Assembly: GCA_035548815.1 (NCBI GenBank)
Contig: DASZSF010000004.1
Location: 57,261-121,260, forward strand
From: Minisyncoccota bacterium
Lineage (GTDB): Bacteria; Patescibacteriota; Minisyncoccia; Phycocordibacterales; SBAW01
Direction: 5' to 3'
Length of the DNA: 64,000 nt
Made by a program: the position numbers and the translations under genes. This document shows positions 1 to 55,857 of this stretch, piece after piece; within the stretch, counting starts at the first letter, position 1, and each line of letters begins with the position of its first letter. The notes under the pieces were generated by a model. That model made no database searches and was not told the DNA's origin. It saw only the letters and a list, made by a program, of their open reading frames with translations.

Positions 1-3000
1 TTGCGGCGCTTGAAACGGTCTGGCCGTTGATGAGCCCCGACGTTATGGTGCCCGCGCCGACGCTCAAATTGCCGTTAAAGACGTTGGTTGAGCCGAGCGT
101 CAAACGCGTCGCCGCTGACGAATCTTTGAGAATATTTCCGTTTATCTGCAGCTTGTCGTCGACGGTGAGCGTGTCGCTCGAGATGTTGTAAATGGCGTTT
201 TGCAGGCCAAGCGACGCCTGTATGGTCGTGTCTCCTTCCGCGTCGACGCGGAAGCGCTCGATGCCGTTCACCCCGATGCCCAAGAGCGTGTTGTCGGTCG
301 AGCCACTCGACGGGTTGATGTAGAGGCTGCCCTGCGCGAGGCCCGCGCCCGAAGGCGCCGCCGTCAGCGCCAGCGTGCCTGCGATGGTCGAGGTTGCGGT
401 GCCCGATACCGTCAGCGAATTCGTCAGGCTGACTGGGAAGTTGTTGAATTCGAACTGCTTGGAGACCGAGTTCCACTTGAGCGTCGCGTTGGGGCTGGCG
501 ATGCCACGCGAAAACGCGAGCGTCGCGTCTTCGGTGTCGTTCGTCGCGTTGTCGGAGTTGATGACGAAGGTCGACGACGCCGTGCCGCCCGCGACGACAT
601 TGGTAACGTTGAGCGTCTCCGCATAGACATTCGCAAAGCGCTGCGTCGGCGAGCCGAGGTTGTAGGTCGCGTCGGCGTTGGGGACAAGGTCCGATGCGGC
701 CTCGCCGTTAAACACGATGTTGTTCGACGCGTTGGCACCGAGCGTCGTATTGCCAAGGACGCTCAGGTGGCCCGCCAGCACGTTGGTGCCCGTCGTATTG
801 GTGGAGTTGAAGGTGCCGACGATCTGCACATCGCCTTCCGCGTCGATGCGGGCGCGCTCTGCCCCGTTGACGGCGAGCCCCACAAGCACGTTGTTGGTGC
901 CGGCGCTGGCCGGGTTGATGTACACCGAGCCCTGTCCGATGCTGGCGCCCGACGGCAGCGACAGCACCTGCAACTGGCCGCCCGTTATCGACGACACTGT
1001 CGCACCGTTGACAGTGAGCGCACCGCCCACATACATGCCCCCGGTCGTCGTCGCACCACCCGCGACGGTTAGGCCGCCGGTCTCTGTGCCGGTGCCGATG
1101 GTCGTCGACGCTAGAAAGAGGTTCCCGCCCGTAAATTGGTTGTTGTCGGCGAGCAATGTTGACGATGCCGCGGTGATGGTGATGGAGCCGCCCGCATTCA
1201 ACAGCGAGCCGTTGATAGTGCCGAGCGGGCCGGCAAGGATGTCCGCGCCGATGCTCGAGGTCGCGACGACCTGGCCTGACGCGTTGATCGAGAGCAGCGC
1301 GTTGGCGAGCGCTGGAAGCACGAGCGCGCCGACGCTGACGTTGTTCGCGAAGTACGCGTTGCCCGTCGTTGTCGAGTTGCCGCTCACCGTGAGGCCGCCC
1401 TGTGCCGACCCGTTGCCAATGGTCGTCGATGCGTATGCTGTCAGGCCAGCGTCGAACTGGACAAGCGTCGAGGTCGCGTTGCCAGGCTGCTGGAACGGGT
1501 ATGACGCGGCCACGGTCGTAAACAACGAGCTACTGCTGACCTTCTGGTTGAAGAGGTTCCAGTCGCTTGATGCGAGGTAGCCGTCCGTCGAGCCGTTTGC
1601 CTGCGAGATCGAAAGCGTGTTCCCGGAGAACGAAAGCGGGCCCAAGACGGTGGTGTTTGCCACGGAGCCGTCCGCGTTGGTCGAGAGCAAGGCGCCCGCG
1701 AGGCCCGTGATTGCAAATGAGGTTGAGGTTGCAGTTGTGAGGGCCGTGTTACCGCTAAAGATGTTGGTGCCCGAGAAGGTGTTGTTGTCGGCGAGCAATG
1801 TTGACGAGGCGGTGGAGATGTTAATGGAACCGCCCGCGGGTACGTCGAACCCGTTGATGGTTGCCAAGGTTCCCGTGAGAAGGTTGGTGCCTATAGAGGT
1901 CGTTGCTATGACCGAACCGTCTGCGTTGGTCGCAAGCAGCGCGTTGGCGAGCCCCGTGATGGCGAATGCGCTGGAGGTGGCGTTGGTCGTCTCAAACGAG
2001 GACAGGCTGACAGTGCCACTTATAGTGAGGTCGCCTGCGACATCCAGGGAGTTGGTTTTTATATATTTTGCGATGATCGAGTCCGCATTGGTCGTTCCAT
2101 GTTCCGTTACATCGTTAAGGTTATTGATGACTTGCGAAATGACGACATTTTGAAGCGGGCTTTCGTGGCCAGGATTCTGCAAGAACGCGATCTGCATTTG
2201 AAGCGCCATCTGCAGTGCACTGAGTCGTTCTTCGAGCTGTGCTGATGTTATACCGCTCACGACCGTCGTATGTTCTACCGTGCGTTCAATGACAGGATAC
2301 GTAATGTTCTGAACAACAGTGTTTGTGGTTCCACTCGTGCGAGGCGCAGTTGCAACAGTCGGAGTTGAAGTTGCTGTCTGGTGCACTGATACAGGTTTTG
2401 CTACAGGTTGCACTGCAACAGGGGTGTTTTGTTTAGGAGCAAACAAGATAGCAAAGACATTTGAGAGGAATTTTGTCGCCCCCGCAAAGGCATGCCCTGA
2501 TGGGGTTGGGAGTATCACGCCAGGAGCCTCAACGCCAAAGAATGGGACTTCTGTCTTTGCGACCGAAGCGACCTGATTTTCTTTCAAGGGGTGAAGGGTC
2601 GAGGCAAACACAAGCGCACCCACCAAGAAGAGCGAGCCGGCAAGTGCCGCAACCGAACTTCCGGCTGCAAGTGGACGTGCGTAATAATAAACTTTTTCAA
2701 AAAGACTGCCGTTTTGTTTTTTGTACGAAGCAACTTCAAGACGGCGTTCTTTTGCCAACTCTTCTGCGCGTTGGCGCTTTGCAGCGATACGGGATTCTTC
2801 AAAACGCGCAATCGATTCTGGAGTTACATACCACTGGCCATCAATTTGTTCGCCTTCAAGCTTTCCTTCCCGACACAATTTCGAAACATAATCTGCTGCG
2901 CACGAAAGTCTTTCCGCAGCCTGGCGAGTAGGAATAAGCTCAACTTTGCGATTTGTAGATACATCTGAAGCAGATGCGGCTTCACCAAACGACAAAACTG

Positions 3001-3298
3001 CTGCCAGGGCTTTTTGCAAGAAATTTGCATTCGCGGCACGGAAATTTTCGTTTTCCAAACGGCGTTGTTGTGCGAGCACTTCTGAGCGGCGTGCTTTTGC
3101 ACGTACCCTATTTTCTTCGAACACACTAATAGAAGCCGGGTCCACGTACCATACACCCTCCACCTGTTTGCCGATCAATTTTCCTTCGCGACAAAGTTTA
3201 GAAATGTAGTCCGGGGCACACTTCAAAAGCAGGGCTGCCTTGCGTGCCGGCAACATCAATTCACTCGTGTTTGAAATTATTTTTTTGGTGGATGACAT
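1..3298 (-). CDS. Giant cell-surface repeat protein (partial; C-terminus lies beyond window start): two tandem N-terminal HTH_17/excisionase-like modules, one signal-anchor TM helix, then >850 aa of Thr/Ser/Asn/Gly-rich beta-helix-like repeats
   Basis: Manual minus-strand translation from ATG at 3296-3298: MSSTKKIISNTSELMLPARKAALLLKCAPDYISKLCREGKLIGKQVEGVWYVDPASISVFEEN... second copy ...TRQAAERLSCAADYVSKLCREGKLEGEQIDGQWYVTPESIARFEES...; TM YYYARPLAAGSSVAALAGSLFLVGALVFAST; repeats e.g. LTVSGNSTTTGNAYFANNVSVGALVLPALANALLSINASGQVVATSSIG / GIERFRVDAEGDTTIQASLGL. Frame stays open to position 1. It is not in the ORF track (no in-window stop; the track seems to omit edge-truncated ORFs). The + strand track ORFs at 200-2576 are antisense artefacts of this gene. 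Confidence 0.7.
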   Translation of the reverse strand, partial: MSSTKKIISNTSELMLPARKAALLLKCAPDYISKLCREGKLIGKQVEGVWYVDPASISVFEENRVRAKARRSEVLAQQRRLENENFRAANANFLQKALAAVLSFGEAASASDVSTNRKVELIPTRQAAERLSCAADYVSKLCREGKLEGEQIDGQWYVTPESIARFEESRIAAKRQRAEELAKERRLEVASYKKQNGSLFEKVYYYARPLAAGSSVAALAGSLFLVGALVFASTLHPLKENQVASVAKTEVPFFGVEAPGVILPTPSGHAFAGATKFLSNVFAILFAPKQNTPVAVQPVAKPVSVHQTATSTPTVATAPRTSGTTNTVVQNITYPVIERTVEHTTVVSGITSAQLEERLSALQMALQMQIAFLQNPGHESPLQNVVISQVINNLNDVTEHGTTNADSIIAKYIKTNSLDVAGDLTISGTVSLSSFETTNATSSAFAITGLANALLATNADGSVIATTSIGTNLLTGTLATINGFDVPAGGSINISTASSTLLADNNTFSGTNIFSGNTALTTATSTSFAITGLAGALLSTNADGSVANTTVLGPLSFSGNTLSISQANGSTDGYLASSDWNLFNQKVSSSSLFTTVAASYPFQQPGNATSTLVQFDAGLTAYASTTIGNGSAQGGLTVSGNSTTTGNAYFANNVSVGALVLPALANALLSINASGQVVATSSIGADILAGPLGTINGSLLNAGGSITITAASSTLLADNNQFTGGNLFLASTTIGTGTETGGLTVAGGATTTGGMYVGGALTVNGATVSSITGGQLQVLSLPSGASIGQGSVYINPASAGTNNVLVGLAVNGAERARIDAEGDVQIVGTFNSTNTTGTNVLAGHLSVLGNTTLGANASNNIVFNGEAASDLVPNADATYNLGSPTQRFANVYAETLNVTNVVAGGTASSTFVINSDNATNDTEDATLAFSRGIASPNATLKWNSVSKQFEFNNFPVSLTNSLTVSGTATSTIAGTLALTAAPSGAGLAQGSLYINPSSGSTDNTLLGIGVNGIERFRVDAEGDTTIQASLGLQNAIYNISSDTLTVDDKLQINGNILKDSSAATRLTLGSTNVFNGNLSVGAGTITSGLINGQTVSSAA

Positions 3299-3477
3299 TG
3301 GCCCGATAAAACTTTTGTTTTTCCAGAGATTTCGGAGATACGCACTTACAAATTAAGTATACGGACGAGTTGCAAAAAACTTCAGAAAAAACTCATCGAA
3401 AACTGTGGATAGAAATTAAAAATATTTTTTACAAAATAAAAAACTACGCGCAATAAAATAGCTCAAAAATAGCCTTA

Positions 3478-3498: not shown

Positions 3499-3685
3499 CG
3501 TAATAAAAATAGACATATCTCAGCTAGTTCCATACTGATTCTGTAAACCTGAGCTTTTTTATGATTAAAAATTTTATAAAACCAAAATTAAATTGATAAA
3601 TTTATTCTAAAACGATTTATCTCGGCTAATTTATATCTATATTTGGCAATATTTCTCGGATAAAAGATATTTATCGCCTATATAA

Positions 3686-3716
3686 AAATTAAAAAGATCC
3701 GATATTTCGCGGACCC
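3686..3716 (-). terminator. Putative intrinsic terminator of gene 3752-4465 (6-bp stem GGUCCG/CGGAUC, 8-nt loop, U-rich tail)
   Basis: Minus-strand RNA gguccgcgaaauaucggauc followed by uuuuuaauuuuu. Confidence 0.4.
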
Positions 3717-3751
3717 TCTGCCATCTCAGATGTATCTAAAACTAATTTATG

Positions 3752-4465
3752 CTATTTTTGACAACTTTTGAAAATGAAGCAGAGTGTTGCTTCTTGTATG
3801 TAGGATATGCTTGCTGGCTTCCCATTTTCCACCGTTACAAGCGAATTTATCTCTAATGAGCCGAAGAAAGATACAGCAAGGATAAGTGCTGCGAAGGAGA
3901 CAAGGGATACTGTTAACATACTCTTTTTCGCTATACTGATCTTCTTTTTTGGAGTTATAGTCACAGGCGGTATATTCTCTTGAATTCGCGGAGCTGCCGC
4001 TGGCTGCACACGCGCTGCAAAAACTGGCGTTGGGCGTTTTGCTATCTCGGGAAACAGAGGGCGGTTATCTGCGATATAGGTAAGTGTCTGATGACGTACG
4101 GGGGTTGGAAGAGGAGCAGCTACTGGAGCAATGGATTTCTCTTCAAGCACCTCTATGGTACTGATCTCAACTGCTGGTACCACTTCTTCTTTCTTTTCTT
4201 CCTTAGCCTCTTCACTAACTACTGCAATAGAAATGGCTTCAGGCTGAGGCTCAGACGCGATCTCAGGAGCAATATAGGCTGTCTTCTCTTTGTTTAGATA
4301 ATCAACAAAGGACTGTTCATCTACATACCACGCACGTCCCACTTTCGTGCCAATCACCTTTCCACCACGAATAAGCTGACCGATGTAGTCAGCATGGTAG
4401 CGGTTCTCTTTAGCTATCCGCTTAGACGATATGTATCGCTTCCCCGAGATTTCTAATTCATCCAT
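3752..4465 (-). CDS. Membrane-anchored protein with N-terminal HTH_17/excisionase-like module (paralogous to the modules on the giant protein), acidic/Pro-rich linker, single C-terminal TM helix and short external tail
   Basis: ORF track 237 aa; N-term ISSKRIAKENRYHADYIGQLIRGGKVIGTKVGRAWYVDEQSFVDYL matches the motif DY[IV]SKLCREGKL.G.Q..G.WYV of the neighbour; TM MLTVSLVSFAALILAVSFFGSL. Confidence 0.6.
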   Translation of the reverse strand: MDELEISGKRYISSKRIAKENRYHADYIGQLIRGGKVIGTKVGRAWYVDEQSFVDYLNKEKTAYIAPEIASEPQPEAISIAVVSEEAKEEKKEEVVPAVEISTIEVLEEKSIAPVAAPLPTPVRHQTLTYIADNRPLFPEIAKRPTPVFAARVQPAAAPRIQENIPPVTITPKKKISIAKKSMLTVSLVSFAALILAVSFFGSLEINSLVTVENGKPASISYIQEATLCFIFKSCQK

Positions 4466-4485
4466 ATAAGGTAAGTATATCTCGG

Positions 4486-4512
4486 CAACAAAATACCCGC
4501 CATTTAGCGGGT
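4486..4512 (-). terminator. Intrinsic terminator downstream of gatB (stem ACCCGC/GCGGGU, U-rich tail)
   Basis: Minus-strand RNA acccgcuaaauggcggguauuuuguug directly after the gatB stop. Confidence 0.5.
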
Positions 4513-10978: not shown

Positions 10979-10994
10979 AATTTACCATAAAACA

Positions 10995-11022
10995 TAAGAA
11001 AAATCCCCCGCCAGCGGCGGGA
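10995..11022 (-). terminator. Terminator-like hairpin (CCCGCC/GGCGGG) plus U-tract about 17 nt upstream of the secA start codon; possible attenuator
   Basis: Minus-strand RNA ucccgccgcuggcggggg auuuuucuu; a second hairpin ccggcacacugccgg lies at 11045-11059. Confidence 0.45.
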
Positions 11023-11073
11023 GACTTTTCTTTCGAGAGGATATCCGGCAGTGTGCCGGAGCCTAAGAGACGC

Positions 11074-11118
11074 TTAGCGGCGCTTCTTCTTTGCTGCTTT
11101 CTTTTTCTTTGCTGCCAT
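11074..11118 (-). other. Candidate 14-codon Lys/Arg-rich leader micro-ORF (MAAKKKKAAKKKRR*) upstream of secA
   Basis: ATG GCA GCA AAG AAA AAG AAA GCA GCA AAG AAG AAG CGC CGC TAA read on minus strand; it is followed by two hairpins, then secA. Confidence 0.25.
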
Positions 11119-11176
11119 AATTTTGGCGACTCTCGTCGCAAATTGTTTTGGACATCGATCGACCTTGCTTCATGAG

Positions 11177-11188
11177 AGTCCGCGGACT
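11177..11188. promoter_or_regulatory. Perfect 12-bp palindrome AGTCCGCGGACT in the murB-secA intergenic region; candidate operator
   Basis: Read directly from sequence. Confidence 0.3.
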
Positions 11189-11292
11189 ACACATGGAGCA
11201 ATCTCGATGCTCTATACATAAGTATCGACTACATACTCTATAGATACAATGAAAATTATTTTTTATCTGTGGATATCTTTTTCGAAAAATTT

Positions 11293-43850: not shown

Positions 43851-43931
43851 AATGAAGCGCTCAATTGACTTTTTGATAAAAAATTAGCATTGTATTTGTG
43901 GATATAGAACACAAATCGGGACACCTCGCAC

Positions 43932-55720: not shown

Positions 55721-55857
55721 GTCGTGAGAATACCAGGAAAGCTCTGCATTTCAAAGCCCTTGACTGGTCAAAAAATAGTTGTCGCAAAACCTATCCACAG
55801 GCTCTCTTAGGCGAGCTGGCTCATACTGAAGCCAGACCACAACCCGGGAGTCCGGTC

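Follow-up and report, generated by a model that had tools for sequence, protein, structure and literature searches.

Why should two adjacent genes, one for a protein of 237 residues and one for a protein of 3277, carry the same domain in three copies and hold it to the cell membrane? The question is raised by a stretch of 64,000 nucleotides from a Minisyncoccota bacterium (contig DASZSF010000004.1, positions 57,261 to 121,260; called the window in its whole length, with its first letter as position 1), where a small gene is followed on the same strand by the gene of a giant protein. The shared module is a winged helix-turn-helix (wHTH) domain, the gene pair is conserved between species, and short DNA motifs are concentrated around it. 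Together these observations suggest that the cell surface and gene control are linked in a way not described before. Paceibacteria are uncultured, genome-reduced and thought to be attached to other cells, and the locus yields a candidate attachment fibre with an unusual anchoring, in which an N-terminal transmembrane (TM) helix is combined with cytoplasmic domains of a DNA-binding type. The conserved partner gene and the cis-elements make a regulatory link testable in vitro without culture.

The small gene is a genuine conserved gene. With a word-index search we recovered 553 full-length homologues, 200 to 300 residues long, and the exact protein sequence is deposited at NCBI as "hypothetical protein VG984_00455, Candidatus Paceibacterota", from a metagenome-assembled genome. 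The AlphaFold2 model, built from 86 homologues, starts with a wHTH domain (residues 1–63) predicted at a local confidence (predicted local distance difference test, pLDDT) of about 95. This is also the best conserved part of the protein, with 19 of the 21 invariant columns of alignment A2 falling in residues 1–47. The domain is followed by an acidic, proline-rich linker (residues 64 to 177, approximately), which is predicted to be disordered, with pLDDT values below 50 for residues 68–110. Inside the linker lies a conserved island, in which Leu128 and Tyr130 are invariant and Asp133, Pro136 and Pro139 are kept in at least 90% of the sequences; relatives with two modules carry a related Y..D..(D/P)L.P motif. 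The chain then passes through a single TM helix, which is preceded by the lysine-rich stretch PKKKISIAKKS and has its excess of lysine and arginine on the N-terminal side, and ends in a short external tail. The initial annotation had described the linker and the single TM helix near the carboxy-terminus correctly, as the model and the hydropathy profile both show, while its estimate of about 25 external residues was too low, the tail having 33 (residues 205–237). The small protein is probably bitopic with its amino-terminus inside, its wHTH domain held from the membrane by a disordered acidic leash of about 110 residues.

That the module is shared between the small protein and the giant had been proposed from the sequence, and alignment statistics bear this out. 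In BLASTP comparisons the small module matches the first and second modules of the giant with E-values of 9e-9 and 7e-8, respectively, and the two giant modules match each other at 2e-31. A profile–profile comparison of 86 small-family members with 38 giant amino-termini gives a probability of 98% and an E-value of 1.7e-13 over 53 columns. In this comparison homology is confined to the module; the small protein's tail does not align with the stretch that follows the TM helix of the giant. A hidden Markov model (HMM) made from the three modules picked up no additional copy in the remaining 60 kb of the window.

By fold, and in the giant also by sequence score, the module belongs to the group of HTH_17, excisionase and MerR-like domains. 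The giant scores 34.6 bits against Pfam HTH_17 (PF12728), above the gathering cut-off of 27 bits, and 79 of the 86 small-family members match the same profile at an E-value of 0.1 or lower, the best at 1.3e-5. The fold expected of HTH_17, a strand, a helix-turn-helix, a two-stranded wing and a carboxy-terminal helix, is present in the predicted structures and is recognised by Foldseek with a probability of 1.00 and TM-scores of 0.70–0.75 to Xis and BldC. Its hits include the Xis protein of mycobacteriophage Pukovnik (TM-score 0.70, root mean square deviation 1.7 Å), BldC, the DNA-binding domain of pSK1 Par and RacA; the nearest solved structures are all excisionase- or MerR-like winged helices that bind double-stranded DNA. 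The tandem modules of the giant are structurally most similar to TraN of plasmid pIP501, which consists of two excisionase-like domains, followed by Xis, RacA, BldC and the MerR-family regulator NmlR. A sequence search of the PDB with the family profile gave no match.

Through this module, membrane-tethered wHTH proteins can be recognised as a single large family. A profile search returned 7,957 clusters (at 50% identity) with E-values of 1e-3 or lower, 4,076 at 1e-10 and 142 at 1e-30, which makes the "small family" of the initial annotation a large one. The top matches fall into three length classes: proteins of 200–260 residues with one module, proteins of 300–410 residues with two, and giants of 1692, 3277 and 5279 residues. 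Among 244 sampled members of 180–450 residues, 237 have exactly one TM helix, always carboxy-terminal to the last module; in 223 of these 237 the N-terminal flank of the helix is the richer in lysine and arginine, and the median tail behind the helix is 37 residues. Because nearly all sampled members place one TM helix behind their module or modules, the module is neither rare nor spread over unrelated architectures. The members are annotated merely as "hypothetical" or "helix-turn-helix domain-containing", and this family, with one consistent architecture over thousands of sequence clusters, is unnamed. Four two-module proteins (P0165, P0179, P0194 and P0196) have a longer external part that ends in a conserved ...GVITPVFKK..GD.(F/Y)(L/V/I)YV.VPV motif, a sign that some lineages may have a small ectodomain of a separate kind.

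The giant gene starts after an AT-rich gap of 453 bp downstream of the small gene and runs past the start of the window, which holds its first 1099 codons. The complete protein (P0126, NCBI HVY72513.1) is annotated as an "immunoglobulin-like domain-containing protein". In the AlphaFold2 model of its first 260 residues, two wHTH domains (residues 16–52 and 122–158) and a TM helix (residues 214–235) are predicted, the folded parts with pLDDT values of 95–97. Behind the helix, orthologous giants conserve the motif SPFFG, which reads VPFFG in the window. Pfam recognises HTH_17, Gp34_trimer, C1q and Bact_surface_Ig-like domains in the protein, and orthologous giants bear Peptidase_S74 domains and LVIVD repeats. 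Peptidase_S74 is the auto-cleaving intramolecular chaperone of tail fibres. From this set of ectodomain types we conclude that the giant is a tail-fibre-like surface protein, probably trimeric, anchored by its amino-terminus. Gp34_trimer, C1q-like and Peptidase_S74 domains are common to the giants and to phage tail fibres and tailspikes with a carboxy-terminal intramolecular chaperone; the giant differs from these in its fixed chromosomal site beside housekeeping genes, its N-terminal TM helix and its cytoplasmic wHTH domains. A scan of the orthologous giant of locus L002 against PHROGs gave no match, and the PHROGs and PADLOC scans as a whole gave nothing meaningful: the small protein matched no PADLOC defence model, and the giant showed a weak match to mad1, at the level of the HTH (20.9 bits). 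Homologue searches with the amino-terminal 330 or 215 residues of the giant were swamped by low-complexity words and returned uninformative fragments. Within the giant gene (positions 1–2000 of the window) the GC content rises to 0.63 and the GC skew is +0.10, whereas the other minus-strand genes of the window have a skew of the opposite sign; the change is tentatively attributed to a composition rich in threonine, serine, glycine, alanine and asparagine and not to replication. Many contigs of related assemblies stop within the giant gene.

The two genes stay together across species. In a scan with one genome per GTDB species, 106 loci were confirmed, of which 80 were retrieved. In 67 of the 69 loci that could be tested (those with at least 900 nucleotides 3' of the small gene), the small gene is followed by a gap and then by a large open reading frame opening with one or two modules; one exception is L018, where gapA takes the position of the giant gene. 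In the loci of five homologues, with 35–100% identity, the gene order is murB, secA, ..., DsbD_TM, holin_4_2, obg, gatB, small gene, gap, giant gene, and gatB upstream and the giant gene downstream were seen throughout the inspected loci. The record titles name Adler-, Nomura-, Kaiser-, Giovannoni- and Vogelbacteria, Paceibacterota and Minisyncoccia; several read "uncultured Candidatus Saccharibacteria", which we suspect to be automated misassignments. By these titles, and with that suspicion about the Saccharibacteria labels, the pair is restricted to lineages of the Paceibacteria/Parcubacteria type of the candidate phyla radiation (CPR), in keeping with the dedicated, lineage-specific system that had been supposed. 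The small proteins of Kaiserbacteria-type loci carry two modules. In two loci the gene behind the small one encodes just 300–335 residues, approximately, comprising an HTH, a TM helix, SPFFG and a short ectodomain (L051, 6945–7949; L057, 6557–7453). Some 4 kb beyond, both loci have a third gene with a module (L051, 11151–11540; L057, 10866–11150), preceded by hexamer clusters of the kind described below and, in L057, also by an ATCCACA box. The features of the pair in the window are collected in Table 1.

Table 1. Features of the small gene, the giant gene and the DNA between and around them (window positions).
Feature	Positions	Strand	Basis
Terminator-like hairpin, after gatB, immediately 5' of the small-gene promoter	4495..4512	-	Hairpin search; similar in many loci
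Small-gene promoter: CCGAGAT half-site (4485–4479) overlapping -10 TATACT (4479–4474)	4474..4485	-	Sequence
Small gene, 237 residues, ATG start	3752..4465	-	Open reading frame; 553 homologues at 94–100% coverage; alignments A1, A2
Cytoplasmic wHTH domain, residues 1–63: beta-hairpin, two helices, two-stranded wing, C-terminal helix	4277..4465	-	AlphaFold2, Foldseek, HTH_17, A2
ATCTCG (codons 6–7), CGATAC and ATATCG (codons 12–13) in the constrained 5' coding end	4427..4450	-	Codon usage
Conserved linker island, QTLTYIADNRPLFPEI; residues 128–141, LTYIADNRPLFPEI	4043..4090	-	Alignments A1/A2
Single TM helix of the small protein	3854..3934	-	AlphaFold2 helix, residues 178–204; Kyte-Doolittle peak, residues 183–201
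External tail, 33 residues (205–237), conserved V.VE.GK.ASV.YS, predicted beta-hairpin	3755..3853	-	Alignments, AlphaFold2
Terminator-like hairpin, 3' of the small gene	3692..3719	-	Hairpin search
Distal hexamer element, degenerate here: CCGAGAAAT ... TTAGCCGAGATAAATCG	3613..3672	-	Aligned gaps
TATCCACA(G) box, DnaA-box-like, about 42 nt 5' of the giant -10	3404..3411	-	Orthologous gaps
Putative giant -10 TATACT (3361–3356) and 5' leader without Shine-Dalgarno sequence, CCGAAATCTCTGG ... AAACAAAAG ... ATCGGG	3323..3361	-	51 aligned gaps
Giant gene, first 1099 of 3277 codons: two wHTH modules, TM helix, tail-fibre-like ectodomain	1..3298	-	Open reading frame, Pfam
Giant module 1, residues 13–65, then a 55-residue helix	3104..3262	-	Module HMM; AlphaFold2 pLDDT 95–97
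Giant module 2, residues 119–171, then a 37-residue helix	2786..2944	-	Pfam, module HMM, AlphaFold2
Giant TM helix, residues 216–234	2597..2653	-	Hydropathy, AlphaFold2

Beyond the initial annotation, the DNA around the pair shows features that are new: a leaderless type of start, constrained 5' codons and clusters of hexamers and palindromes. The -10 box of the small gene ends 8 nucleotides before its ATG, without a Shine-Dalgarno sequence between them, and because of this short distance the mRNA appears, from the sequence, to be leaderless. The same arrangement is found in related loci: a -10-like hexamer ends 6–8 nucleotides before the ATG in 62 of 71 (TATACT in 49), and a Shine-Dalgarno-like sequence precedes the gene in just two of the 71. 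Downstream of the start, codons 4–16 are under synonymous constraint across about 70 species loci. Ser7 is encoded by TCG in 66 of 67 cases and Ser13 in 63 of 70, against a background of 0.25 for both, Leu4 by CTA in 42 of 70 (background 0.05) and Arg10 by CGA in 40 of 68 (background 0.13). Owing to this constraint, ATMTCG hexamers are kept at codons 6–7 and 12–13.

The hexamer ATMTCG and its complement CGAKAT recur in the gap between the two genes, which has a median GC content of 0.33, compared with 0.51 for the whole loci. They occur there at 7.1 per kb, at 2.8 per kb in other intergenic DNA and at 1.75 per kb in coding DNA, and at the start of the small gene, in the gap and upstream of other family members they are often paired as the palindrome CGAKATMTCG. 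The 10-mer CGA[GT]AT[AC]TCG is present in 62 copies in 725 kb, where 2.8 are expected; 44 of the 62 lie within the gap, a density of 1.25 per kb against 0.026 per kb elsewhere (48-fold). Perfect palindromes, CGAGATATCG or CGAGATCTCG, are seen in orthologous gaps such as those of L027, L048 and L070, and outside the window the orthologous distal element reads TAGCCGAGATATCG-N~12-CGATA...TCTCG. When clusters are defined as at least four hexamers per 120 nucleotides, 42 of the 48 clusters in 837 kb lie no more than 700 nucleotides upstream of a module start, in sequence that accounts for 18% of the total. The same hexamer clusters lie upstream of three further, independent genes of the family, found in L051, L057 and L083. 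In the Kaiserbacteria-type loci L080–L085 another palindrome-like motif, AGCTAGTAAAAT.TAGCTA, lies across the -10 region of the giant gene, a change that may reflect co-variation of operator and domain.

On these grounds we propose, at not quite an even chance, that both proteins are membrane-tethered DNA-binding regulators of their own fibre locus, with the small protein as a dedicated regulatory partner. The wHTH domains of both would bind DNA, with the ATMTCG/CGAKAT repeats, often in the form of the palindrome CGAKATMTCG, as candidate sites. Such repeats lie at the leaderless start of the small gene, in the gap 5' of the giant gene and 5' of further genes of the family, and from the membrane the pair would feed back on the expression of the surface-fibre locus, the small gene providing its conserved upstream regulatory partner. 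The architecture, the module homology, the topology signal, the conserved gene order and the places where cis-elements are enriched were all observed; from them we infer the binding to DNA, the choice of motif and the direction of regulation. The proposal is favoured by structural neighbours that bind double-stranded DNA, by membrane tethering in 237 of 244 members and by gene pairing in 67 of 69 loci; it is also favoured by the half-site that lies across the -10 box of the small gene in the window, by the motif clusters upstream of family genes and by the constrained codons that keep the hexamers. Several points weigh on the other side. The small protein of the window scores 15.3 bits against HTH_17 (E-value 0.024), which is under the cut-off, and its recognition helix (DYIGQLIR) is unlike that of the giant type (DYVxKLCRE), so that small and giant modules may use different sites. 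A palindrome of 10 bp is short for a two-fold HTH dimer, at least one perfect copy is present in the gap of just 37 of 70 loci, and the genome of the window has none; its sole cluster, at the start of the small gene, contains three hexamers. Moreover, some other regulator could bind the hexamer motifs, and the synonymous constraint could stem from the needs of leaderless translation. A bolder form of the proposal, which we hold to be decidedly unlikely, is that the giant fibre itself is a DNA-binding protein, whose first 200 residues, approximately, together with the small paralogue bind their own operators while the chain threads the membrane. If so, fibre synthesis, assembly or host contact would be coupled straight to transcription without a second messenger, either by co-translational tethering of the locus, with transertion as a regulatory device, or by a mechanically or proteolytically gated release. 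For episymbiotic CPR bacteria such a coupling would be outside-in signalling of a new type.

The same domains might instead serve a structural purpose. The wHTH modules would then bind DNA or the nucleoid with little regulation, or a cytoplasmic protein, and position the base of the trimeric fibre, and the small protein would help to assemble or anchor it, much as RacA, Noc or partition adaptors do; a role as anchoring factor was among the candidates of the initial annotation. RacA and pSK1 Par, which anchor chromosomes or plasmids to a cellular site, are among the nearest folds. They join a MerR-like wHTH to a coiled coil, and the giant has a wHTH followed by a long helix; such a helix behind each module is typical of oligomerising adaptors. 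Two conserved regions, the small protein's external tail and the giant's SPFFG segment, could also come into contact outside the membrane. However, RacA and Par are soluble, are recruited via other proteins and have their sites across a chromosome region or centromere, whereas the motifs here are concentrated at the family's own promoters. The two hexamers are present in 39 and 41 copies in the 64 kb of the window, near chance, and because they are not enriched across it a global nucleoid tether is not indicated. The lack of shared homology between small and giant proteins beyond the module also speaks against a structural role, which we rate as rather unlikely. A related reading, in which the wHTH binds MreB, FtsZ or FtsA instead of DNA, takes RodZ as its model: like RodZ, the small protein has an N-terminal cytoplasmic HTH, a linker and a single TM helix, and its strong N-terminal conservation, with the invariant columns gathered in residues 1–47, would suit a protein partner. 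RodZ, however, binds MreB through an HTH of the XRE type and ends in a conserved carboxy-terminal domain in the periplasm, and in Pfam searches neither domain was found here, the HTH being of the HTH_17 type. With structural neighbours that are all DNA binders, and with the cis-elements left unexplained, a cytoskeletal adaptor is highly improbable.

Two further readings retain a link to transcription and differ in how the signal would pass. Contact, tension or processing of the fibre might lead to intramembrane proteolysis that frees the wHTH domains as transcription factors. TcpP and RsgI-type systems are membrane-bound factors released by proteolysis, and the layout of the giant, a cytoplasmic DNA-binding-type domain, one TM helix and a huge ectodomain, is like theirs; the autoproteolytic Peptidase_S74 of orthologous giants would fit as well. 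Yet this domain lies near the carboxy-terminus of the ectodomain, distant from the membrane, no conserved protease was found in the five loci inspected, and the small protein has nearly no ectodomain with which to sense, so that release by a signal is very doubtful. The initial annotation had named, as one candidate role, an anti-sigma or ToxS-like partner, for which the bitopic topology beside a partner gene might speak. This is extremely improbable: Pfam and NCBIfam searches showed no anti-sigma domain (zf-HC2, RsgI_N and similar), the small gene is flanked by gatB and the giant gene, no sigma-factor gene is present among the called genes of five orthologous loci, and the cytoplasmic domain is a canonical wHTH. 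ToxS has no HTH; because the small protein carries a DNA-binding-type domain itself, it is to be likened to the ToxR/TcpP side of such a pair. A mobile-element excisionase was considered and rejected, since the gene keeps a fixed place among housekeeping genes and no integrase was found in the five loci.

If the proteins are regulators of their own locus, as we propose, they resemble known systems in part. ToxR/ToxS, TcpP/TcpH and CadC share with the pair a bitopic protein with its amino-terminus inside, a cytoplasmic winged helix, one TM helix and two adjacent cooperating genes, and the topology of these regulators recurs in the family (one TM helix in 237/244, a lysine- and arginine-rich flank in 223/237); the likeness is one of logic only. 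ToxR, TcpP and CadC use an OmpR/PhoB-type Trans_reg_C domain, which Pfam finds neither in the small protein nor in its 86 relatives, and have a true periplasmic sensor in place of a 33-residue tail (family median 37). With neither Trans_reg_C nor a folded sensor, the proteins fall outside the ToxR/CadC family, and they do not belong to the RodZ or anti-sigma families either. The accessory partner of a ToxR-type system has no HTH, whereas here both partners have one, the first with a 33-residue ectodomain and the other with a giant fibre. Xis, BldC, TorI and the tandem TraN, all HTH_17 proteins, have the same fold and the signature …DY…L.R.GK….G..W.V… in common with the module. They are small and soluble and act in recombination, development or conjugation, whereas the present family anchors its module through a TM helix and the giant joins it to over 3000 residues outside the cell; no integrase or mobile-element context is seen in five loci. 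To our knowledge, no characterised protein has an excisionase- or MerR-type domain fixed to the membrane, and we know of none with such a domain as the cytoplasmic end of a tail-fibre-like protein of several thousand residues with a small paralogous partner. No description of the family or the pair was found in the searchable full-text literature.

The gap also contains elements that are not specific to the family. Of 72 orthologous gaps, 64 contain the TATCCACA(G) box, at a constant distance from the -10 box of the giant gene. The sequence TATCCACA, which we take to be the core of the DnaA-box consensus, has a density of 1.7 per kb in the gap, 0.66 per kb in other intergenic DNA and 0.019 per kb in coding DNA of 70 related loci. 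In the window it is present six times, against 1.2 expected: four copies are intergenic (3404–3411(-), 11268–11275(-), 43897–43904(-) and 55792–55799(+)) and two coding (18032 and 32319). Because it is present at other promoters it is a general promoter-associated element and not a family-specific one, possibly a DnaA box at which DnaA acts as a transcription factor. A replication origin in the AT-rich gap was rejected, as there is usually just one such box per gap, the same box is found at other promoters, and the local shift in GC skew falls on the giant gene.

An RNA element in the gap was likewise rejected: RNAalifold gives -0.9 kcal/mol, the covariation of a two-helix model is no better than that of shuffled alignments, and an Rfam search of the gap found nothing meaningful. 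Because the gap shows no conserved RNA structure, motifs at the level of the DNA are favoured. The leader of the giant gene (3299–3361 (-)) has, in 51 aligned loci, the order CCGAAC/CCGAAAT ... AAACAAAAG ... TTTTCGG/ATCGGG followed by the ATG, and its ends could pair around an A-rich loop. Further away, the gap between murB and secA (10979–11292 (-)) contains a perfect GTTATCCACAG box and a block of about 150 nucleotides that is conserved in five genomes; Rfam has no match in it. Just 5' of secA lies a tiny lysine-rich reading frame, MAAKKKKAAKKKRR* (11074–11118 (-)), rich in AAA and AAG codons, and the element could be a secA leader peptide or a regulatory RNA.

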